Source: Escherichia coli
GTDB lineage: Bacteria > Pseudomonadota > Gammaproteobacteria > Enterobacterales > Enterobacteriaceae
Assembly (NCBI RefSeq): GCF_022846255.1
Contig: NZ_AP025682.1
Reading direction: 5' to 3' (one strand)
Length of the DNA: 64,000 bases
A model generated the notes under the pieces. The model saw only the letters and a list, made by a program, of their open reading frames with translations, ran no database searches and had not been told where the DNA came from. The first letter of the stretch is position 1; every line of letters begins with the position of its first letter. The translations under genes were made by a program, and so were the position numbers. This document shows, piece by piece, positions 39,333 through 51,409 of this stretch.

Positions 39333-40217
39333 GGGATGAAGATGAGATGATTCGCAGGCCTGGGTAATAGTTGGAAAACAACGTCCGTTCCTGGCACAGA
39401 GCAGACCATCGGACTAAACTGAAGGTCCTCTCTGTGCGAGAAACGGAAGTTAGCAATTGTGATACAGACGTGGGGCATTACTCGCTTTACAGTGTGTTAA
39501 TCAATTGGAAACAGGTCAGAATTTATTGGGTGGAATGACACCTTTAAACTTCTTGCGCATCGCAAGGAATATCTCCACCAGACGGTAAGACAGTAGATTG
39601 CGCCACAAGTCCTCAGAATGCCCTTTGCTGGGTTAACCACACGTCGTAATCATCCTTCCAGTGCAGCGGATCAAGATCCGTAATGCTCATAGTCACGCGA
39701 TTTCAAATACAAGCCCAGTGGTGTTATCCGTGAGCTGGACAGTGCTTCCGGCAACATGACTGAGACAGACAAAAAATCAGTTAGTACAGCATTGACTCAG
39801 GTTGAGCAGGAGTTAAAACAAACTGGGCTGGAGCAGTAGAAGCCTGCAGTGAATTCCCTGAATCAGGCGATTAAGTTGGCTTAAGAGTCCGTGTATGCCA
39901 TGTGCCGCGAGATGTCGTGCTATACGTGAAAGTCAGCGATATATATCGTTTTGAAGATGATTTAGGTTACGGGAGTGTCTCTGGGTGATGTATTACTTCA
40001 TCGACATCGGCTACGCACGGGTTGCCGCGATGCAGCGGATGGAAGCTGTCTGGGAAAAGAAAGCTCCGCTTGCTAATATTAGTACATCCGATGAAAAATC
40101 GTGTGTGAAAGTTGCAGATTCGTAATATACTAATGAAGAATGGAGATGTATTTTATATAATAAAAACATCTAAGTAGAGCTTTTTATTTTAAATCCTTCA
40201 TTATTACTGGAGATTTT

Positions 40218-41996
40218 ATGGGTTTTTATAATGACGCACTGAGTAAAATATATAGTGAAGATGATGATTTCCTAATTATAGGATTAACAGGGAGGACGGG
40301 GTCAGGCTGTTCAACAGTTTCTAATATACTGTCATCAGAATCAAGTGAGATAAAGCATTCTCTATTTAACGGTGATTACCCTAAGTCGAATGAAGAAAGA
40401 AAAGAGCGGGTTCTATTTAAATATTTTTCCGTGTCATGGGTTCCATTTATAAAGATACAAGCAAGTTCCATACTGACATTGTGTTTATCAAAGGACTTTG
40501 ATGGTAAGCTGAATAAATTTATTCGGGAAGTGACGGAGTTAGGTAATGACCAAAGAATCCTAGAGTCAACAGTTAATGATCTTGAATCTATACTAAAAGA
40601 AATTAAAGCTAAAGATGAAAGCTCTGATCATGATATAGATGATAAGATAAAATTCATAAATGAATATCTAATAAAAGCGAATACACAAATTAAATCCATA
40701 TTTAAGAACAAGGCTGACTATATAAAACTATATCAAGCTATAGGTAATAATTATAGATCTAGTGGGATGTACCATGACAGTTCATTTAGTGATGATTTCC
40801 ATGGTTTTTTTCTTCCTAAAAAAATAAATGATATAATTCAAAGATTAAGAACCTTAGCAAAAGAAAAGAACACAAAAACTGGAGAAAAGAAACCTATTTA
40901 TATAGTTATTGATGCTATAAGAAATCCGTTCGAAGCAACATACTTCCAAGATAGATACTCATCATTTTATTTAATGGCTGTTTCTACAGAAGAGCATTAC
41001 AGGCATCAAAGGCTTAGAGAACAAGGTTTAACTGATGCTGAGATAAAAGATATTGATGCAAAAGAATACCGTAAATCATCTTTGGATGAGAAGTCATCAT
41101 ATATATATCAGAATATACAGTCTTGTTTAGAAATATCAGACATCTATGTTGAGAATCCGGAAGAGGAAAATGTTGTTTGTCGGTACTCAGGATTGGCTAA
41201 TCAATTAATTAAATTCACTTCATTAATGAAGCGTCCCGGTATAATAACTCCATCAAATGTTGAACGTTGCATGCAGATAGCATATACAGCTAAGTTGAAC
41301 TCTGGTTGTATATCCAGGCAGGTAGGCGCTGCAGTATCTGATAGTTCATTTTCAATTAAGTCTATTGGTTGGAATGATGTACCAAGTGGTCAAGTTCCTT
41401 GCTCTTTAAGGGATAGGTTTGATTTGTCTGAGGGGATTGATGATATTGCTTACTCTGAATTCGAAAAGAACGAAAATAGTTTCATTCGAAAAATAGATAG
41501 CACTAAGATTATTTTTTTAGATGTTAAAAATAAAGGAATGAGAGCTCCATTTTGTTTTAAAACAGAATGGAATAATATCCTTGATGATAAATACAAAGAA
41601 GATCTACGGGTCGAGCATAAGTTAAATGATGATGAGTTTGCTATTATTGACAAAATAAAGTCTAACGCTAATCAAGTTTTTACAAGATCACTTCATGCTG
41701 AAGAGAATGCTTTCTTACAAATATCTAAGTATGGTGGCGTTGGTATACAGAATGGTTTTTTGTTCACAACAGCAAGCCCTTGTGAATTATGTTCTAAAAA
41801 AGCGTATCAATTAGGGATCAAACAAATATATTACATAGATCCATACCCTGGTATAGCAATGAGGAATATTTTAAACGCAGGGAGCAATAAACCATTGCTT
41901 AAGCTTTTCAATGGTGCAATAGGTAAGGCATTCCATAATTTTTACACGCCAAGAATGGCTTATAAAGATGAGCTTTCAGCAAGATCTAGGGGGTGA
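40218..41996 (+). CDS. Two-domain P-loop NTPase / dCMP-cytidine deaminase protein (AvcD / kinase-Dcd-like anti-phage candidate)
   Basis: 592-aa ORF with GGAG Shine-Dalgarno. N-terminus has Walker-A-like GLTGRTGSGCST. C-terminus has HAEENA (about 41694) and PCELC (about 41778) zinc-binding deaminase motifs. Strongly AT-rich, with about 0.8 kb non-coding on each side. Confidence 0.7.
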   Translation: MGFYNDALSKIYSEDDDFLIIGLTGRTGSGCSTVSNILSSESSEIKHSLFNGDYPKSNEERKERVLFKYFSVSWVPFIKIQASSILTLCLSKDFDGKLNKFIREVTELGNDQRILESTVNDLESILKEIKAKDESSDHDIDDKIKFINEYLIKANTQIKSIFKNKADYIKLYQAIGNNYRSSGMYHDSSFSDDFHGFFLPKKINDIIQRLRTLAKEKNTKTGEKKPIYIVIDAIRNPFEATYFQDRYSSFYLMAVSTEEHYRHQRLREQGLTDAEIKDIDAKEYRKSSLDEKSSYIYQNIQSCLEISDIYVENPEEENVVCRYSGLANQLIKFTSLMKRPGIITPSNVERCMQIAYTAKLNSGCISRQVGAAVSDSSFSIKSIGWNDVPSGQVPCSLRDRFDLSEGIDDIAYSEFEKNENSFIRKIDSTKIIFLDVKNKGMRAPFCFKTEWNNILDDKYKEDLRVEHKLNDDEFAIIDKIKSNANQVFTRSLHAEENAFLQISKYGGVGIQNGFLFTTASPCELCSKKAYQLGIKQIYYIDPYPGIAMRNILNAGSNKPLLKLFNGAIGKAFHNFYTPRMAYKDELSARSRG

Positions 41997-42797
41997 AAAT
42001 ATTGATACAGGTAAAGGCAACGAACCAGAAATGCTCGAGACTATTCTGGCTAAGTCTGCCGGGCGATAAGCACGAGTGCATATGCTGTTCCAAAAGTCTT
42101 CTATTCAATAAATTACGAAGTGCTAACTAACTGACCATGTACAATAAGAACAAATCGCCTTGAATTGCTCTTGATTGAATGGTGAAGAATTATGAGGGTG
42201 ATAGTCCTTACCACCCTCAATTAAAATTAAAGGTATTTACGTGAGAAATTTTTCTTAACCACACTACTAATAAAACTATTTAGTCCATGCCCATCCTGGG
42301 CTAGCGCTTTCATCTTAGAGACCGTTGAAGCACCCAGTTTTGTAGAATCGTAACGTATTTCCATCCATCTTTAAACTGTACTGTGATAACATCGGGAGTA
42401 ATCTCATAAAACACTATTCCCGAATTACCGCCTTAATTAGCATAAGTTGGCATTTTTAATTCTTATTAAATTATTGCAGCAAGTCGCTGCACTCTAGTCA
42501 TATGACCCCATGCTAAACCTAATTGTTGAGCTAAGTCATAATTTCGATTATTTGATGAACGTAAGTTATTTGACAGGCAGAATTAACCATACACAGTAAT
42601 ATCCGTTTCTGGCACATAGCAGTCCTATAGATAGTGGCATACAGTCATAGATGGTCGATTGGAGGAGGTGCAAATTCTCCCATACAAAAAATACGTAAAA
42701 TCAATAACAGCTGGAAATTATTTAATAATCAAATTATCGGAAGTTCACCAGCCAGCCGCAGTATTCTGCCACGACAAGTTGCTGCGGCTTTTTATGT

Positions 42798-43085
42798 TTA
42801 ACGGATAAACAGCCAGACCAGCAGACACGCCACCGCGGGCACCGCAAAATCCATCAGACTTGCCACATCCCATGCACGAGGATCAAAACCGCCCCACCAC
42901 GGCATGTTAATCCGCTTGCCATGCCCGAACATTTCAATCCAGCGATATTCTGCCTGGGTGTGTTCACGCGCAATGAAGAACGTACAACCGGCTATCGCCC
43001 CGTAAGCCCAGTTTCCGGTAAAAAGACCAATCAGTAGCTGCGCAGCCACAGCACAAAGTGCATGAAGGAAAGGTGTTATATCCAT
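42798..43085 (-). CDS. Small hydrophobic hypothetical protein (prophage tail-fibre-distal region)
   Basis: Start placed at the ATG preceded by AAAGGAGGA (MDITPFLHAL...). Two predicted hydrophobic segments. Function unknown. Confidence 0.5.
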   Translation of the reverse strand: MDITPFLHALCAVAAQLLIGLFTGNWAYGAIAGCTFFIAREHTQAEYRWIEMFGHGKRINMPWWGGFDPRAWDVASLMDFAVPAVACLLVWLFIR

Positions 43086-43098
43086 TACTCCTCCTTTA

Positions 43099-43800
43099 TC
43101 AGATATCACTTCGGGAAGTTGATAACAACTTTAATTCTGACTCAAGTTCATCAACTCTTTCAGTCAGTTTCTGGATATGGTGAATCAGTGGAACAACCAG
43201 ACGTTCGTACATTACACCTTCGACAACAAGGCCATTGCTGGAAATAGCTTCAGGAGCATCATCTTCGTTAGCTGGTCGCCAGTGTACAAACTGAGGAGCA
43301 ATTTCTCCCACTTCCTCGGCAATCAATCCGTAGAATCCCCAGTCACTCCTGTCATTTTCGCATTGCGACCTGTACCACACAGGGCGCATCCTGAAAATGA
43401 GATCGGCGTGCTCTGAATCTATTGTCTCTACTGAATGTTTATAGCGAATAGACGATGTTGACCGCAGTACAGACGAAATTGCAGGGTCAGGATTAAGATA
43501 AAGATTTGCCGCCGCTGTAGTCGTGCCCAATTCCCATAAATAAAACGCTTCACGGCCAGTCAGCGGGTAAAAATCTCCACCATAACGACCGCTTTCCAGA
43601 TCGTTCACTTCCAGTTTGTTTTTCAGCTTATTATCAACTTCAGTTTTTGTGTATCTGGTGCTGATATCCTGCTTTGCACTGGTCATATCAGTCTGAAGCG
43701 TTGATACTTTTCCGTTAATTGAGGAAATATCTTCCTTAGTTTTACTGACATCTCCCTTTAGCGTGGTGATATCTCCTGGAATTACTGTCGATGTAGCCAT
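43099..43800 (-). CDS. Tail-fibre-associated protein with C-terminal intramolecular-chaperone-like domain
   Basis: 233-aa ORF with coiled-coil-like N-terminal half and C-terminal segment (GLIAEEVGEIAPQFV...ERLVVPLIHHIQKL) resembling the Peptidase_S74 / tail-fibre chaperone domain. Downstream of stf. Confidence 0.55.
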   Translation of the reverse strand: MATSTVIPGDITTLKGDVSKTKEDISSINGKVSTLQTDMTSAKQDISTRYTKTEVDNKLKNKLEVNDLESGRYGGDFYPLTGREAFYLWELGTTTAAANLYLNPDPAISSVLRSTSSIRYKHSVETIDSEHADLIFRMRPVWYRSQCENDRSDWGFYGLIAEEVGEIAPQFVHWRPANEDDAPEAISSNGLVVEGVMYERLVVPLIHHIQKLTERVDELESELKLLSTSRSDI

Positions 43801-43809
43801 TTGTCTCCC

Positions 43810-44091
43810 TCACATCCAGCCACGAAGTTGATGCTCAACAACAACCGCATATTTATCGAATATTGACGATTTTTTTGCATCATTAATGATGCGCACGTTT
43901 ACAAAATATCCGTCTTCCTTAACACATACCGGTTCGCCATCTTCAGTCAGTTCTCCGGTTTCTTTGTACACGTTACCTATCACGTCAATAAGAATATTAT
44001 CCTGCATCGACTCGTCATCATAATAGCCAGTGCTCTCCATAAAGGCCGAAAAGTCGGCCCTGTCTGCAAATTTGAGTGTTAAATCTTTCAT
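43810..44091 (-). CDS. Hypothetical 93-aa acidic protein
   Basis: ORF tightly packed between stf and the next gene. No recognisable motif. Confidence 0.45.
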   Translation of the reverse strand: MKDLTLKFADRADFSAFMESTGYYDDESMQDNILIDVIGNVYKETGELTEDGEPVCVKEDGYFVNVRIINDAKKSSIFDKYAVVVEHQLRGWM

Positions 44092-46472
44092 TAGATTGAC
44101 TCCCCCACCTGAGCATCAGTCAATGCCTTGTGCCATATTCTGAAATTCCTGACATGACCAAATAAATGACGTAACCCGGCAGTAGTCTGGCCTCCAATAC
44201 GGATAATTGCGGTGTTCTGAATACAGGACCATGTGGTTTTTGTTTCGCTGGATATACGCCCGTTACTTACTGAGCACGTAGACTGATCTGACTTTACACG
44301 CATCCCCATAACCATTTTTTCAAGCGATGCGTTTTCGTTTACCCGTCTGTTAGCTCCTCCAATATCGCAATAAGGAAATCCGTCGTAATCTGTTGAACGA
44401 CCGAAGCCAAGAATAATAGCCGCTCCGGTTTGATGACCGCCGGTGTCAAAAACACGCGGAGCTGCATTTGGCGTTTTATACCAGTTCTTATGTACCTCAC
44501 AAAGAACCGTAAAAGGAAGATTATAAAGATTATTCTTAATGGGAACTGTAACTATATCGCTTGCGCGGGTCGCCGCCGTCGTTCCTGATATAATAAAAGA
44601 TGATACACAAGGCCCATTTTCTACTTGTGGGGTGGCCAGATAAATATAGTCACCAGATACGGTTGCCCCGCCCTGCTTAGGAGAATACTGTATCTGAGAA
44701 CCTATTTTTAACTCCCCATCAATTGCCTGAATTGTTGCCTCTGCAAAAATCCATCCGGTAGCTTCGTCCTTTCTGACTCTCGCAGTAATCCTTGAGGCAG
44801 CACCGCCTGTCATATTAATTTCAAGCGTTTGTGTATCAATATACGCATCACCAAGAAAAGTTGTTGCGCTACCGTCATATTTATCAAACCGGATACGCAA
44901 CCTTACCTGCAGTTCTGTTTTAAAACGACATGAGGTTGTCACGTGTTTATTATCGCCTGAGACATCAACTGACTTTGTTGCAGCAATTGATGCCATATTA
45001 ATGGCTGAGGTTTGCCCAATCAGAGAATCGTTGCAGACAAACTTTCCATAGGTAAAACCAAAACTATCCGTCCCTGTTTCGGGCACATCCATATTTGACG
45101 ATCGCCCCCAACTGGCAGGGTTTTCCGAATTGAGCATGTAGTTTGTTCTTTGCCCCTCAATAAGCAGGCCATCACGTTCAAACCGTGGCTCGTCAATGGC
45201 AGCCTCTGTCAGCACACCAGATTTATTAATGTAAGTTGCTTTTGATGCGCGTTTAAACTTTACAACCTTATCGCCAGGCATCGTTATTTCATCATCACCA
45301 ATAACAATCTTTTTATATGACGGCGAAAAGCCCGTAATCATATCCAGTGAATCGTTAAACGGTATCCACACATCGGGAAGCGGCTGCAATACTTGTTTAT
45401 ACGGCTCCGCAGCCTGGCTTGCATACTCTCTGGCTGCGTCTTCACTTGCTTTTGCAGCCGTCTGGCTTGCAGCGGATGCTTTCGCCGAGTTAGCCGCCGC
45501 AGTCTCGCTCGCCTTTGCGTTGGTTTCACTGGTTTTTGCAGCTTTTTGACTGTTGGCTGATGCAGTGGCAGAAGCAGCCGCCGCGCTTGCAGAGCCAGCT
45601 GCAGCACTCTCGCTTTCGGCTGCTGCATCCTGACTGCTTTTCGCCGCAGTTTCACTGGCTTTGGCATTCGTTTCGCTGGTTTTCGCTGCCGTCTGGCTGG
45701 ACTTTGCGTTGGTTTCGCTGGTTTTTGCAGCTTTTTGACTGTTGGCTGATGCAGTGGCAGAAGAAGCCGCCGCACTTGCAGAACCAGCTGCAGCACTCTC
45801 GCTTTCGGCTGCTGCATCCTGACTGCTTTTCGCCGCAGTTTCACTGGCTTTGGCATTCGTTTCGCTGGTTTTCGCTGCCGTCTGGCTGGACTTTGCGTTG
45901 GTTTCGCTCGTCTTTGCGGCTGTCTCGCTGTTTTTCGCATTGGTTTCTGATTTTTTGGCTGCTGTCGCGGAGTTTGCCGATGCAGTCTGTGAGGTCGCTG
46001 CCGCCTGTGCGCTGTTAGCTGCATTCGTTTCTGAGGTTTTCGCCGCGTTCTTCGATGATGCCGCTGCAGTTTCGGATTTCTTTGCCGCCGCTGCGCTCTG
46101 AGAGGCGGCTTCGGCGTTGCGTGCCGCTTCTTCCACCATTTCCTGAAAACGGCGCAATGCCTCCGGCATGACATCATCTTCCGTCATGGCACCGAGAAAA
46201 TCATTCAGCGTCCCCGGACTGGAACCTTCATAGACGGTAATGGTCCCAACATGTGATGGCTGAGAACCCTCAATCCACAGGATGACGCTGTACTGACCAT
46301 ACTCAACGTCCATACTGTAACGCCCGGCTTCATCAGGATTTTCAGAGGTCACCGTGTTCACCAATACCGTGGTGCTGTTACGCTTTGCCTTCAGTTGAAT
46401 AGTGCAGTTCTGTATTGGTTTTCCCGCACCATCTTTCAGCACACCTGAGATTTTTACTGCTGCCATATCCAC
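44091..46472 (-). CDS. stf: Lambda-like side tail fibre protein Stf
   Basis: N-terminus MAAVKISGVLKDGAGKPIQNCTIQLKAKRNSTTVLVNTVTSENPDEAGRYSMDVEYGQYSV matches lambda Stf. Long Ala/Ser/Thr/Lys-rich repeat region and a divergent C-terminal domain. Confidence 0.9.
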   Translation of the reverse strand: MDMAAVKISGVLKDGAGKPIQNCTIQLKAKRNSTTVLVNTVTSENPDEAGRYSMDVEYGQYSVILWIEGSQPSHVGTITVYEGSSPGTLNDFLGAMTEDDVMPEALRRFQEMVEEAARNAEAASQSAAAAKKSETAAASSKNAAKTSETNAANSAQAAATSQTASANSATAAKKSETNAKNSETAAKTSETNAKSSQTAAKTSETNAKASETAAKSSQDAAAESESAAAGSASAAASSATASANSQKAAKTSETNAKSSQTAAKTSETNAKASETAAKSSQDAAAESESAAAGSASAAAASATASANSQKAAKTSETNAKASETAAANSAKASAASQTAAKASEDAAREYASQAAEPYKQVLQPLPDVWIPFNDSLDMITGFSPSYKKIVIGDDEITMPGDKVVKFKRASKATYINKSGVLTEAAIDEPRFERDGLLIEGQRTNYMLNSENPASWGRSSNMDVPETGTDSFGFTYGKFVCNDSLIGQTSAINMASIAATKSVDVSGDNKHVTTSCRFKTELQVRLRIRFDKYDGSATTFLGDAYIDTQTLEINMTGGAASRITARVRKDEATGWIFAEATIQAIDGELKIGSQIQYSPKQGGATVSGDYIYLATPQVENGPCVSSFIISGTTAATRASDIVTVPIKNNLYNLPFTVLCEVHKNWYKTPNAAPRVFDTGGHQTGAAIILGFGRSTDYDGFPYCDIGGANRRVNENASLEKMVMGMRVKSDQSTCSVSNGRISSETKTTWSCIQNTAIIRIGGQTTAGLRHLFGHVRNFRIWHKALTDAQVGESI
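45530..45890. repeat. Tandem direct repeat (about 180 bp x 2) inside stf
   Basis: Near-identical 180-nt units starting about 45538 and 45718, encoding a repeated 60-aa Ala/Ser/Thr/Lys-rich block. Confidence 0.75.
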
Positions 46473-46530
46473 TCCACAAAAAAGCCCGCCTGAACCGGCG
46501 GGCTGTCATAACACTGTGTTACCTGGCTAA

Positions 46531-47130
46531 TCAGAACTTATAACCGACACCCACGATGAAACCGTCAGTGCGCCAGTCGCCACTGCCGGAGCCTTCATAA
46601 GCAATATCAATGGCCACGGATTCGGTCGGGTTAAACTGCACGCCAGCTCCCCACGCCAGAGACGTGTTGCTGTGGCGATCGTCATCACTTCCGGTCAGCA
46701 CATCGTGCGTTTTCCCCTTGTTGTCAGTTACGCGGAGATAATCCCCGGAGAACGTCGAAACACGGCTGTAAGCCACACCTGCCATCGCATAAGCACTGAA
46801 CCATTCATTCACGCGTACAGATGGCCCCGCCATCATGCTGAACCAGCGGTTACGCACTGAATCTTCATGCCAGCGGGTATCGCTGTAATGCGTTTTTTGC
46901 TCATCTTTGGCATTGGCATAACTGAATGACGTCACCAGCCCCAGCGTGTCCGTAAACTCATAACGGTATTTCACGTTAATCCCGTTCAGATCATCGCTGC
47001 CTGGCATATCAGTATGGGTCTGAAGATACCCGGCGCTTAGTGTGGACTGATGCTCTGCTGCGCTTGCTGGCGTACCAGCGGCAACCAGCCAGACTACTGC
47101 GGACAGAATAACAGCACATAATTTACGCAT
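46531..47130 (-). CDS. lom: Lom outer-membrane protein (Ail/PagC/OmpX family)
   Basis: 199-aa ORF with signal peptide and beta-barrel character, between J and stf as in lambda. Confidence 0.9.
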   Translation of the reverse strand: MRKLCAVILSAVVWLVAAGTPASAAEHQSTLSAGYLQTHTDMPGSDDLNGINVKYRYEFTDTLGLVTSFSYANAKDEQKTHYSDTRWHEDSVRNRWFSMMAGPSVRVNEWFSAYAMAGVAYSRVSTFSGDYLRVTDNKGKTHDVLTGSDDDRHSNTSLAWGAGVQFNPTESVAIDIAYEGSGSGDWRTDGFIVGVGYKF

Positions 47131-47197
47131 AATTACCTCTCGCTTTTCTGCAATAAAAAAGGCGTCATTTCTGACGCCCGTATTGGGGTTATAAAAT

Positions 47198-50100
47198 TCA
47201 GCTGATACTGATGCCTGCGGTGGCTTTCTTCATCACCACAACCAGCAAATCGCTGATACTTGCTGTGGGATACCAGTCATTTACCAGCCATGCTGACACC
47301 GAAAACTCCAGCGTCATGTGACCGTGACCGGCAGGCATATCAATAACGCCACTGTAAATCAGCGTATTATCCAACGCGGTACGGTTATAAATTTCAGCAC
47401 CGTTTTTCCGCACTATCAGACGGCATGAGGAGTAAATATCAGTATGCTCTCTCTCATGTTTAGCGCCGCTGAATGCCACCGCCGGAATAACAATCTGCCG
47501 GTCAAACGGCTGATCGTCATAAATCCTGACGGTAATGGTCCCTGATGGCCACCGTTCCGGTGCACGGGAGTCCCGGGGGAAAGCTTTGCCCACTGTTTTA
47601 ACGAGATCGCCTTCAATCTGGTTCGCGGACAGTTTTCCCAGAACCCGGCAGTTCTCGTTAATCGTGACGTTGTTGAGCGTCCCGGAGTTCGCATTCACGT
47701 TACCGCTGATATCGGCATTTTTCGCCGTCAGCCGCCCGTCCGGTGTCAGGGAAAATGCCGGAGGATTACCGCCGCTGGTAATGGTGGGAGCCGTCAGATA
47801 TTTCAGGAACACTTCGTTCATGAATATCTGATCGCCCTGACCAACAAACATCGGCTTTGTGTTGCCATTTGCAGGATTAACCATCGCAATCCTGTCCGCC
47901 GCCAGCAGCACCTGACTCTGCATGCCGTCAGGGGTGTTCTCAATACCGGCACCAATACCCGCGATATAAAGGCGTCCGTCCCGCATCTGCTGCAGCTTCA
48001 CAGCCCACATGCTGTTCAGGTTATTATTTGTATCAACCTGAACCTTCTGTATCTGCTGAATTGCCGCACTCTGGTCTTCCAGTTTCTTATTGACGGTCTG
48101 CGTGATTTCATTGCTGACACCCGTAATGGACGTCCTGATTTCAGCCAGGTCAGGCGCAAGCTGACCGTTATCAATCTGCGTCCACAACTCCTGAGCCAGA
48201 TGGGTTTTCCCTATCTCTCCTTTGAAAAAATTCAGATAGCCGGATGCATCATCACTCGGCTGGCCAACAGCCTCCACAAATGCCGATTTGCCAACGGTGT
48301 TCACACTGCGGATGTAAAAATAATAATCATGGCCCGGTTTGATATTGATACTGGCGGCTATCCAGTACAGCGCCGTGCCAAGATAGCGTGCTGTGGTTTC
48401 AACCTGCCTGATATCCGCAATCCGCTTTTCCGAGAACCAGAACTCAAACTGTACCGTCGGATCATAAACCGCAAGATGCGGCGTGGCGGTTATCTGAAAA
48501 TACCCCGGTGTCAGCTCAATCTGCGACGGCGCTGCCGGTGCGGCAATCCGGAACGATACCGATGCCGGATCGCCCTGCTGCCCCCACGCATTTACCGCCC
48601 GGACTGTCAGCCTGTAGTTCCCCAGCGCCAGTTGCCTGAAGCGGTATGTGGTTTCCGTCGTCCGGGCCATGCTGACCAGCCGCTCACTGCCGTCGTCCGC
48701 TGCCACGGTAAGGCGAAGCAGGAAGCTCACGCCCTTCACCACCTTCGGCGTGTCCCATCGCGCCAGCACCTGATATTCCCCGCTGTCTGCGGTGACTTCG
48801 GCGGTCAGGTGCTGCACCGCTGGCGGCGTGACACCATTCACCGTGCCGCTCTGGTCGCCGTCAAAGTGCGCCCCGTTATCCACGATGGCTTCTTTTTCCG
48901 GTACATGCTGCACGGCGGTGATGGCATACGTACCGTCATCGTTCTCCCGGATACTCACACAGCGGAACAGGCGCTGGCGCAGCGTCGGCAGCTTCAGCCC
49001 CCATACGCTGTATTCAGCAACACCGTCAGGAACACGGCTCACTTTCACCTTCACGCCGTCGGTGACGGACTGAACCTCCACGCTGACCGGACTCCCCTGC
49101 CCGTCAACCAGGCTTATCAGCGTGGTGCCGGAGGATGGCAGCGTGATTTCACGGTCGAGCGTCAGCGTCCGGGTCTGGCTGTTTACCGCCAGCACGCGCC
49201 CGCCGGTGCTGATACCGGCATAGTCATCATCACAGATTTCAATGACATCGCCCGGCACATGGCGAAGCCCTTCTGCGCCCACGCTGAAGTCCACGGTCTG
49301 CGTTTCCAGCAGTTCTGTTTTAATCAGCCACAGCCCGGCGCGGTGTGCCTGCCCCCGGCTGGTACAGCCAAAAGCATCCATCTTCGTGACGTTACGACCG
49401 TAACGGGCAATGGCCTGCGTGTCCTCCACAAGCTCTGTCGCCGTCTCCCAGCCGTTGTTCGGGTCAATCCAGTTCACCTCAACGGCATTATGGCGGTCTT
49501 TCAGGGCGCTGAAGCTGTAGCGGAACGGCGCGCCATCATCCGGCATCACCACATTACTGCGGTTATAGGTCCACACCTTATCCGACGGTCGGTCCTGCAC
49601 GAACGTCAGCGTCTGCCCGTTCCATACCGGCATACAGCGCATCGCCGAGCAGAAATCACTGAGCACATCCCACGCCTTGCGCTGTGTGGTCAGGTACGCA
49701 TTACAGGTGATGCGCGGCTCCGTGCCGCCAAAACCGTCCGGCACTGACTGGTCGCAATACTGGCCGATGACATACAGCGCCCATTTATCCACATCTGCCG
49801 CACCAAGACGTTTCCCCATGCCGTAGCGCGGGTGGGTCAGCATATCCCACAGACACCAGGCCATGTTGTTGCTGTATGCTGGCTTAAACGTTCCGTCCCA
49901 GATACCGCTGTATTGCCGCGTCTGCGGGTTATAGTTCGACGGCACCTGCAGAATACGCCCGCGCAGATGATAATTACGGCTCACCTGCTGGCTGCCGAAC
50001 TGCTCCGAATCCACCTGCACGCCGACCAGTGCCGTGTTCGGGTAGCACTGTTTCACATCGATGATTTCGGTGTATGACGACCAGAGCGTTTTGTTCTGCA

Positions 50101-50677
50101 GCTGGTCTGTGGTGCTGTCCGGCGTCATCCTGCGCATCCGGATATTAAACGGGCGCGGCGGCAGGTTATCCACCACCACCGAGGCCAGATACTGCGAGGT
50201 GGTTTTGCCCTTAATGGTGATGTCTTTTTCCGTCACCCAGCCACCGTTACGTTGTATCTGAACCAGCAGGCGGACTTCCGATGGATTCCTGTCCCCCTTT
50301 GAGGTGGTTTCCACCAGTGCCTGCACACCGAAGGTAAAGCGCAGACGGTCGATGTTTGCCGACGTGATGGTGCGGGTGATCGGCGTGTCGTATTTCACTT
50401 CCGTACCCAGCACCGTCTCGGAACCGGAGGATTCAAATCCCTCCGGCGGTGTCTGCTCCTGCTCACCTGCCCGGAACACCACCGTGACACCGGAGATGTT
50501 GGTATTCCCCTCACTGTCCAGCACCGGCGTACTGTTCAGCAGCACGCTTTTTAATCCATCCACCGGACCTTCAACCGGCCCTTCACTGATGGCATCAATC
50601 ACACTCAGCAACTGCGTGGATTTCAGGTTGTCCTTCGCTTCGCGCGGGGTATGCCCCTTACTGCTGCCTTTACCCAT
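47198..50677 (-). CDS. J: Tail tip / host-specificity protein J
   Basis: 1159-aa ORF. The N-terminal about 800 aa match lambda J closely. The C-terminal receptor-binding part diverges. Confidence 0.95.
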
Positions 50678-50737
50678 TCGTCATGCTCCATAAACGACAA
50701 AACCGCCCGGAGGCGGTTTCACATAAAACATTTTGCA

Positions 50738-51409
50738 TCAGCGACCAATCACCACAACCTGACCACCGTCCCCTTCGTCTGCCGTGCTGATCTCCTGAGA
50801 AACCACGCGTGACCCCACGCGCATTTCCCCGTACAGAACAGGCAGAACATTGCCCTGGGCAACCATGTTATCCAGTGACGAGAAATACGTGTTCTGTTTG
50901 CCGTTATCTGTACTGGCTGCCGTGGGCGTCCTGGCTTTCGGTGCCAGCATCTGCGCCACACCACCAAGTACCATACTGGCACCGAGAGAAAACAGGATAC
51001 CGGTCATACCACCGGCCCCAATGGCTGCCCCCCATGCTGCAAGGGTGGCTCCGGCAGTAAAGAATGATCCGGCAATGGCGGCAGCCCCCAGAACAATCTG
51101 GAATACGCCCCCTGACTTGGCCCCGGCGACTCTGGGAACAATATGAATCACAGCGCCGTCAGGCAGAACCTCATGTAACTGCGCCGTCAATCCGGACGTG
51201 CTGACGTCCCGCCCGGAAATCCGTACCTGATACCAGCCGTCGCTCAGTTTCTGACGAAACGCCGGGAGCTGTGTGGCCAGCGCCCGAATGGCTTCAGCCC
51301 CCGTTTTCACACGAAGGTCGATGCGGCGGCCAAATCGTTGTAAATCCCCGTAAAGGCAGATGCGCGCCATGCCCGGTGACGCCAGAGGGAGTGTGTGCGT
51401 CGCTGCCAT
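50738..51409 (-). CDS. I: Tail assembly protein I
   Basis: 223-aa ORF overlapping the 3' end of K, as in lambda. Confidence 0.9.
   Translation of the reverse strand: MAATHTLPLASPGMARICLYGDLQRFGRRIDLRVKTGAEAIRALATQLPAFRQKLSDGWYQVRISGRDVSTSGLTAQLHEVLPDGAVIHIVPRVAGAKSGGVFQIVLGAAAIAGSFFTAGATLAAWGAAIGAGGMTGILFSLGASMVLGGVAQMLAPKARTPTAASTDNGKQNTYFSSLDNMVAQGNVLPVLYGEMRVGSRVVSQEISTADEGDGGQVVVIGR

Follow-up and report, generated by a model that had tools for sequence, protein, structure and literature searches.

Does the lom gene of a lambda-like prophage serve the bacterium that carries it, as cargo of lysogenic conversion, or does it serve the phage? The question is raised by a 64,000-nucleotide stretch of Escherichia coli DNA (hereafter the window), in which the first-pass annotation had placed a lom-type outer-membrane moron within a prophage, together with expression from lysogens and the adhesion and serum-resistance phenotypes associated with Lom. 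We investigated the gene and its predicted fold, its neighbours and transcription signals, its frequency, and its variation among related prophages, and we weighed these results against what is reported for lambda Lom. The coordinates of the features are collected in Table 1.

Table 1 Features of the lom region and of the prophage end, with positions in the window.
Feature	Position	Strand	Content and basis
Anti-phage dCTP deaminase	40218..41996	plus (opposite to lom)	592 aa, P-loop + cytidine-deaminase; PADLOC dCTPase, E 5e-127
Side tail fibre, Stf-like	44091..46472	minus	793 aa from the listed GTG 46472; PF08400 phage_tail_N, E 2e-63
Conserved boundary block	46473..46620	minus	Final ~28 lom codons + lom-stf spacer; ~90% nt identity to lambda after ~1.6 kb of divergence
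Terminator-like stem-loop lom/stf	46478..46504	minus	AGCCCGCC GGTTCA GGCGGGCT then T-run; stem 46504..46483; consensus scan
lom CDS	46531..47130	minus	ATG start, 199 codons, TGA stop (ORF); predicted precursor of an eight-stranded outer-membrane beta-barrel
lom C-terminal strand	46534..46563	minus	GFIVGVGYKF, Phe last; Y197 and F199 invariant in the alignment, OmpX included
lom signal peptide, residues 1-24	47059..47130	minus	MRKLCAVILSAVVWLVAAGTPASA then AEHQ
lom Shine-Dalgarno	47136..47141	minus	GAGAGG, 5 nt before the ATG; kept in lambda and all aligned loci
Terminator-like stem-loop J/lom	47155..47179	minus	GGGCGTC AGAAAT GACGCC then T6; stem 47179..47160; consensus scan
Tail-tip attachment protein J	47198..50677	minus	1159 aa; NCBIfam lambda_TipJ, 2389 bits, + seven Pfam J domains

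We found lom to be intact and of the 199-aa type common in E. coli prophages; its product differs from the RefSeq protein WP_001228252.1 of E. coli CE10 by a single residue change (N49K). Inspection of the translation revealed a predicted cleavable signal peptide with a basic N-end (MRK), a hydrophobic core and an A-S-A cleavage motif (ASA followed by AE), and no lipobox within it; the same segment forms the low-pLDDT N-terminal helix that precedes strand 1 in the AlphaFold2 model, and the lambda Lom signal peptide aligns with it. An aromatic C-terminal strand is the usual insertion signal for outer-membrane barrels, and by inspection the protein combines such a C-terminal signal with its signal peptide, as is characteristic of the family. 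The mature protein would comprise ~175 aa (19.5 kDa, pI ~5.1), and a tblastn search found no further lom copies in the 64-kb window. Among 52 distinct full-length copies of the 199-aa type, all of them intact, dN/dS was 0.12 for the barrel and 0.21 for the loops; these values indicate that purifying selection maintains lom and that the gene is not decaying. We also considered diversifying selection on the loops of this type and rejected it, as the loop value is itself one of purifying selection.

Assignment to the lom-type family was borne out by profile and structure comparisons. The Pfam profile PF06316 (Ail_Lom) was matched over its full length (positions 1-199 of 199; 425.8 bits, where the cut-off is 23; E 2.9e-128), PF13505 (OMP_b-brl) also matched the ORF (E 5.9e-23), and the solved structures matched were lambda Lom (9wso_C, E 2e-49), OmpX (E 4e-19) and Ail (E 2e-18). 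With 21 aligned sequences as input, AlphaFold2 gave a model (mean pLDDT 83.6, pTM 0.71) that consists of an N-terminal helix followed by eight long beta-strands (residues 29-40, 47-58, 63-81, 86-106, 111-135, 141-166, 172-183 and 186-198), and Foldseek aligned this model with Ail (3QRA, E 1.5e-14, TM 0.85) and OmpX (1QJ9, E 8.6e-14, TM 0.85). In the model, the eight strands of Lom close into an outer-membrane barrel of the Ail/Lom family with four external loops, and since strands 3-6 are 19-26 residues long, loops L2 and L3 are predicted to stand well above the membrane. Barrel and family similarity, the two properties by which the annotation could be judged, are thus both present.

The relationship is one of family membership, not of equivalence. 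Ail of Yersinia (3QRA), OmpX of E. coli (1QJ8/1QJ9), and Rck and PagC of Salmonella share the eight-stranded barrel and the conserved strand motifs of Lom at ~30% identity; however, L2 and L3 of Lom are much longer than those of OmpX (~25 extra residues), and the genes for these relatives are chromosomal or plasmid-borne, whereas lom lies in a phage late operon. Consistently, the NCBIfam equivalog scores fell well under their cut-offs, both for Rck/PagC (NF011777, 120.4 versus 258) and for OmpX (NF006917, 105.3 versus 176). By these sequence scores the protein is a Lom, related to Ail, Rck and OmpX but the equivalent of none of them.

Its placement within a prophage was likewise confirmed. The gene is flanked by J and stf, and beyond J lie lambda-type I, K, L, H (tape measure), V (tube), E (capsid), C (protease) and B (portal) genes, which together identify a lambda-like prophage; the order J-lom-stf, all on the minus strand, is that of lambda. 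The likely start of stf, from alignment with the lambda stf start, is the ATG at 46466 with GGAG upstream, with reading through from lom, and the side tail fibre has a match in the PDB (9e7m, 'Tail fiber protein'). Host synteny extends up to ~39406 (a LysR regulator, a hydrolase and an MFS transporter, with tor, rut, put and efe genes further left), and prophage-type similarity starts at ~39381. This boundary indicates that the window covers one end of a lambda-like prophage together with its late half.

We then compared the locus with lambda. Lambda Lom (NP_040601; 9wso chain C) occupies the same slot between J and stf and shares the family, the signal peptide, the eight-strand plan and the Shine-Dalgarno; the two proteins are nevertheless only 45% identical (93 of 207 aligned positions; 206 aa in lambda, 199 aa in the window), and loop L1 of the window protein is 8 residues shorter. 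With ~10 residues beside each periplasmic turn counted as membrane-embedded, identity was 68% in the transmembrane strands and 20%, 21% and 25% in L1, L2 and L3, respectively, with 8 gap columns in L1, whereas loop L4 and strands 7-8 are identical protein in both. The last 27 residues and the hairpin downstream are nearly identical in lambda.

At the nucleotide level (sliding identity), the window and lambda are 95% identical over J residues 1-830, 57% over J residues 831-1159, 44% in the J-lom spacer, 52% over lom codons 1-172, 90% over lom codons 173-199 and 91% in the lom-stf spacer. Divergence is thus unbroken from J residue ~830 through lom codon ~170. The C-terminal third of J (about 47198..48250) is its receptor-binding end, and it falls within this same stretch; over the last 140 aa the two J proteins share 42% identity. 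From this identity profile, one contiguous divergent block takes in both the receptor-binding end of J and the part of lom that encodes the loops. Because the receptor-binding end of J differs from that of lambda, a partnership of lambda Lom with LamB, the maltoporin considered below, cannot simply be transferred to the window protein.

The label 'moron' implies an autonomous transcription unit, and we examined the locus for a promoter and a terminator of its own. Terminator-like hairpins bracket the gene. The J/lom hairpin folds at -16.7 kcal/mol (z -2.6), and across 80 related IMG/VR loci its stem occurs as GCGTC/GACGC (21 loci), GCGCC/GGCGC (40) and GCACC/GGTGC (17), all Watson-Crick paired, the two remaining intermediates both being G.U pairs; such compensatory changes are a pattern produced by selection on RNA structure. 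Lambda has a different hairpin with a T-run at this position. The lom/stf hairpin folds at -20.9 kcal/mol, is identical in 51 of the 57 loci where it was found, and is ~91% conserved with lambda, so that it is nearly identical between two phages whose lom bodies are only ~52% alike in DNA. Hairpin/T-run sites in the region number 2 against 2.4 expected, no excess over chance, and the case for terminators therefore rests on position and conservation. Tandem late-operon terminators were reportedly mapped just past J in lambda by Luk and Szybalski (1983), which would fit these hairpins.

No promoter stood out. A sigma-70 consensus search over 45800..48000 returned 0 sites against 2.1 expected, and the best score of a weight-matrix scan over the 600 nt upstream of lom (7.1) was at background, since scores this high occur ~2.7 times per kb on each strand throughout the window; between the T-run of the upstream hairpin and the lom ATG there are only ~24 nt. 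A weak promoter, or one that is not of the sigma-70 type, may nevertheless be present. Two individual candidates were rejected: TATAAC at 47193..47188 is conserved, but lacks a -35 that could serve it and would place the transcript start at the hairpin itself, and the TATTAT/TATAAA that follows the J/lom hairpin in lambda is not conserved in the window (TATTGC). An Rfam scan of 39000..51000 gave chance-level hits only. The base composition of lom (GC 0.532, GC3 0.56) lies between those of J (0.567) and stf (0.489) and is not foreign. In HK97, by comparison, J (15141-19031) and stf (19239-20204) are direct neighbours and no lom separates them, which marks lom as an optional insert. The moron label therefore holds in part: an optional insert with a terminator-like hairpin downstream agrees with it, whereas neither a promoter above background nor a foreign composition accompanies them. 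Judged from the DNA, lom is an optional insert bracketed by terminator-like hairpins, and nothing in the sequence points to an autonomous transcription unit.

We next considered how common the gene is. A 901-base query comprising the gene and its flanks matched 4752 of 5426 complete E. coli genomes (~88%) in ~15,400 places altogether, with a median of 2 places per genome and a maximum of 14; the best genome identity was 99.2%, and the matched gene is annotated as 'Ail/Lom family outer membrane beta-barrel protein'. The same query matched 218 phage records, many Stx phages among them, and clusters of near-identical Lom proteins have thousands to tens of thousands of members. The 199-aa Ail/Lom proteins of PhiR46_1, 2G7b, VT1-Sakai and Stx phages occur in the J-lom-stf order found here, and the 901-base query is 88-98% identical to the listed phages; the CE10 prophage differs in that the tail fibre downstream of lom is fragmented there and intact in the window, with otherwise no difference of substance. 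In one E. coli genome, an IS1 is inserted within lom. The lom gene of the window is thus an ordinary, ubiquitous, previously annotated and already known gene, and its identification by itself, a correct call of a very common prophage gene, matters little.

What makes the locus informative is the relation between Lom and the neighbouring tail-tip protein. From 160 IMG/VR loci, the window and lambda, we obtained 150 loci with a full-length Lom and a usable J end; the IMG/VR loci had been picked by Lom similarity, with the 199-aa type and lambda Lom as queries, and Lom and its neighbours were typed at 80% identity. Lom type agreed with the type of the last 140 aa of J at an adjusted Rand index of 0.69 (pairwise identity r 0.64), compared to 0.14-0.33 (r 0.24) for Stf residues 1-140, which lie equally close on the other side, 0.28 (r 0.37) for Stf residues 161-300, and 0.10-0.33 (r 0.37) for the middle of J. 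Across the 150 loci, Lom type therefore follows the receptor-binding end of J far better than it follows the equally close N-terminus of Stf. Clonal relatedness was only partly removed from these statistics by collapsing identical pairs.

The association is also evident type by type. The 199-aa Lom type adjoins a window-type J end in 88 of 98 loci, the lambda Lom type adjoins the lambda J end in 5 of 5, and in 38 of 40 loci a 207-aa Lom type, 61% identical to lambda Lom, has an A8-like J end beside it. A natural prophage variant, the A8 J end has been shown to use OmpC, and the closest solved relative of the J end in the window is the OmpC-binding chimera 'A8 gpJ' (~58% identity over the last 131 aa). 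Strict one-to-one coupling was considered and rejected: ~10% of the 199-type Lom copies adjoin other J ends, and four loci (L039, L071, L074 and L079) pair a 94-97% identical Lom with a 59-66% identical J end. As drawn from these sequences, the link appears to be a statistical association only, and linkage, combined with a hot spot of recombination in the conserved 3' end of lom that would uncouple stf, could be an alternative cause of it.

The receptor of lambda is LamB, and two newer lines of evidence favour a phage-directed role of lambda Lom. Over-expressed lambda Lom gave strong defence against lambda-vir and none against T7, and its expression climbs sharply late in infection; the authors proposed that Lom prevents non-productive adsorption, and reported that the Lom level in a lambda lysogen does not block lambda-vir under laboratory conditions (bioRxiv 10.1101/2025.02.28.640651). 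Furthermore, a LamB search showed that PDB entry 9wso contains lambda Lom together with maltoporin LamB, the LamB sequence being the same as in the gpJ-LamB entry 8xcj; sequence searches placed neither J nor Stf in 9wso, and a literature search found no paper describing the entry. From the co-deposition we infer that 9wso is a Lom-LamB complex, a reading that fits the lambda-vir-specific block. A phage-directed role of Lom in lambda is evidently already under study by others.

On this basis we prefer, as unproven and with a likelihood that we place slightly short of even, the reading that Lom masks the receptor of its phage's own J type, with lambda Lom and LamB as the model. It is supported by the block confined to lambda-vir, by the presence of Lom and LamB in one entry, and by Lom type tracking the J end; it is weakened by the distance of the window protein from lambda Lom, which is greatest in the loops. 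The late-operon position suggests that lom would be made mainly by Q-antiterminated late transcription reading through both hairpins; if the repressed prophage expresses lom at all, it would do so from a promoter not recognisable in the sequence. The variable surface loops of Lom would then bind the outer-membrane receptor used by the tail tip J of the same phage, and with this receptor masked, fewer kin phage would adsorb to lysogens, to cells undergoing lysis and to debris of their membranes; attachment to animal cells would be a by-product, or a second use of the protein. No PADLOC model matches Lom.

Small envelope proteins encoded beside the tail-tip or receptor-binding gene, Cor (phi80, N15, HK022, T1) and Llp (T5), inactivate the phage's own receptor FhuA. 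They offer a possible functional analogy; however, Cor and Llp are lipoproteins or small membrane proteins and not barrels, they are unrelated to Lom in sequence and fold, and blocking activity on the Lom side is that of over-expressed lambda Lom only.

Lambda has a serum-resistance gene, which is bor. Lists of the genes that lambda lysogens express usually name lom alongside rexAB and bor. This listing belongs to the alternative closest to the original annotation, that Lom is an adhesin or virulence factor of lysogenic conversion, made from the repressed prophage, with loops that bind animal-cell or matrix ligands and aid colonisation or resistance to host defences. Membership in the family of Ail, Rck and PagC speaks for it, as does the phi24B Lom orthologue, whose expression is similar in lysogens and induced cells, and lambda lom is credited with the adhesion of E. 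coli K-12 to human buccal cells, the basis being a single 1997 study. That study concerns a protein that is only 45% identical to the one in the window and has different loops. Serum resistance has been reported for Ail and Rck, and a review of the family states that Lom does not share complement resistance (PMC4198210), so that the claim reduces to a family-level property that the review denies for Lom. Caution is thus due wherever Lom is taken to mean virulence or serum resistance, a label of the family that the literature does not support for Lom itself.

Several of the results above also count against a role as adhesin. The window protein scores far under the Rck/PagC and OmpX equivalog cut-offs, and a gene region that 88% of complete genomes match, at 2 places in the median genome and at 14 in the richest, is not a pathotype marker. 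No promoter of its own is visible, and one array study, which noted how little is known of the lambda lom promoter, saw no expression of the gene in a lambda lysogen. Moreover, such a role leaves the agreement between Lom type and the J receptor-binding end unexplained. We consider it doubtful.

Lambda lom is dispensable for plaque formation, a fact that bears on a further alternative, in which Lom acts late in the lytic cycle on the outer membrane at lysis or release (with holin or spanin, on membrane stability, or through vesicles) and not on receptors. Its position in the late operon and the absence of a recognisable promoter upstream would suit such a helper of the envelope; expression of lambda lom is strong during the lytic cycle, and among lambdoid phages the gene co-transfers with a holin family (PMC9836094). 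In Y. pestis, loss of the relative Ail affected membrane lipid balance and cell integrity (PMC8508112). Besides its conflict with dispensability, however, this alternative predicts neither blocking that is specific to phage type, nor Lom and LamB in one PDB entry, nor the tie to the J end, and we judge it unlikely. It is highly improbable that lom is a decaying or silent passenger carried along with the tail genes and devoid of current function, since, although many database relatives are truncated or lack 14-27 internal residues, a loss that would break the barrel, IS1 interrupts one copy and HK97 has none, the window copy is full length with its signal peptide and C-terminal signal intact, all 52 distinct full-length copies are intact under the low dN/dS given above (0.12-0.21), and the flanking RNA hairpin has been kept by compensatory changes.

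Receptor masking, the preferred reading, could be extended to Lom proteins as a whole. Lom proteins would then be receptor-matched masking factors that move with the J receptor-binding end as one exchange module, in which lambda Lom would be paired with LamB, the 207-aa type with the OmpC-binding A8-like J, and the 199-aa type with the receptor of the window J; we put this forward tentatively, as a possibility with the balance against it. If it were true, the loop type of Lom would predict, and could help to find, the receptors of lambdoid prophages that are uncharacterised and number in the thousands, and the multiple lom copies of an E. coli genome would represent layered, kin-specific control of adsorption and not virulence cargo. 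Should the link between Lom and J prove functional, lom would serve the phage by controlling adsorption and would help in predicting prophage receptors.

For cargo that serves the host, a better candidate lies at the end of the same prophage. The dCTP deaminase gene listed in Table 1 scored 371 bits against the NCBIfam 'anti-phage dCTP deaminase' model, just below its cut-off of 400, and judging by these profile matches it best fits the part of host-serving cargo, as a stronger candidate than lom. Its GC content is 0.329, compared to ~0.5 in its surroundings.

Several features besides lom, the Ail/Lom-family outer-membrane barrel gene, were noted in the prophage region of the window. A dCTP deaminase candidate (Table), judged from its sequence, would be a moron or defence cargo gene, and a far clearer case than lom. 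Its product matched PADLOC "dCTPase" (E 5e-127) and scored 370.7 bits against the NCBIfam model "anti-phage dCTP deaminase", below the cut-off of 400. The gene has a GC content of 0.33 (GC3 0.25) in surroundings of approximately 0.5, and is located on the strand opposite to the late operon, with the tail-fibre genes on one side and the prophage/host junction on the other.

Table Features around lom and stf (window coordinates unless stated).
Feature	Position	Strand	Description
lom-stf spacer	46473..46530; lambda counterpart 19586..19649	-	58 nt
Tandem repeat in stf	45495..45921	stf (-)	189-bp unit, 2.3 copies, 94% matches
93-aa ORF	43810..44091	-	downstream of stf
233-aa protein	43099..43800	-	Peptidase_S74 "chaperone of endosialidase" domain
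Hydrophobic 103-aa ORF	42798..43109	-	downstream of stf
Anti-phage dCTP deaminase candidate	40218..41996	+	592 aa; P-loop N-terminal, cytidine/dCMP deaminase domain C-terminal
Prophage/host junction	~39381..39406	n/a	overlap of host-type and prophage-type similarity, ~26 bp

Mosaicism was also evident within the Lom genes, from the aligned database proteins and the locus types. Certain proteins of 207 aa (P0061, P0074) carry a lambda-like long first surface loop (L1) and signal peptide fused to the body of the common 199-aa type; other forms (P0045, P0056, P0099, P0111) have in-frame deletions of 14–27 residues that remove strands. Such deletions would break the barrel, and these are probably defective copies. 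In E. coli SBF22 (NZ_CP067235.1, 250438-252115), an IS1 element is inserted within a lom that is otherwise 99% identical, which is one example of inactivation in the wild.

PDB entry 9wso contains lambda Lom together with the maltoporin LamB, whose sequence is the same as that of LamB in the gpJ–LamB entry 8xcj (gpJ, lambda J). Because lambda Lom and LamB share this single solved entry, a direct Lom–receptor complex is suggested; our literature search found no paper describing 9wso.

Of the 80 related loci, most share one and the same lom-stf spacer sequence, which is approximately 91% identical to its lambda counterpart; conservation of the spacer thus exceeds that of the lom coding sequence. 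Ahead of its terminator-like hairpin lies a second, small hairpin (GUAACAC...GUGUUAU). The spacer may have a regulatory role, or it may mark a mosaic boundary.

The side tail fibre gene stf (44091..46472, minus strand) is intact in the window (793 aa), whereas in strain CE10 it is broken up into pseudogene fragments. Its tandem repeat has 42- and 21-bp periods nested inside the unit, shows strong AT skew, and encodes an Ala/Ser/Thr/Lys-rich run ("AAKTSETNAKSSQTAAKTSETNAKASETAAKSSQDAAAESESAAAGSASAAA..."). Comparison of related loci indicated that the three ORFs 3' of stf are exchanged independently of lom. The Peptidase_S74 domain marks a putative second tail-fibre or spike component; family searches with the 93-aa and 103-aa ORFs returned no match.

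Similarity to prophage-free E. coli genomes stops at ~39406 and similarity to prophage-bearing genomes begins at ~39381, making the overlap a candidate attachment-site core. Rfam hairpin matches over 39379..39454 were weak, at chance level. The junction lies a short distance 3' of a LysR-family gene (38445..39332).
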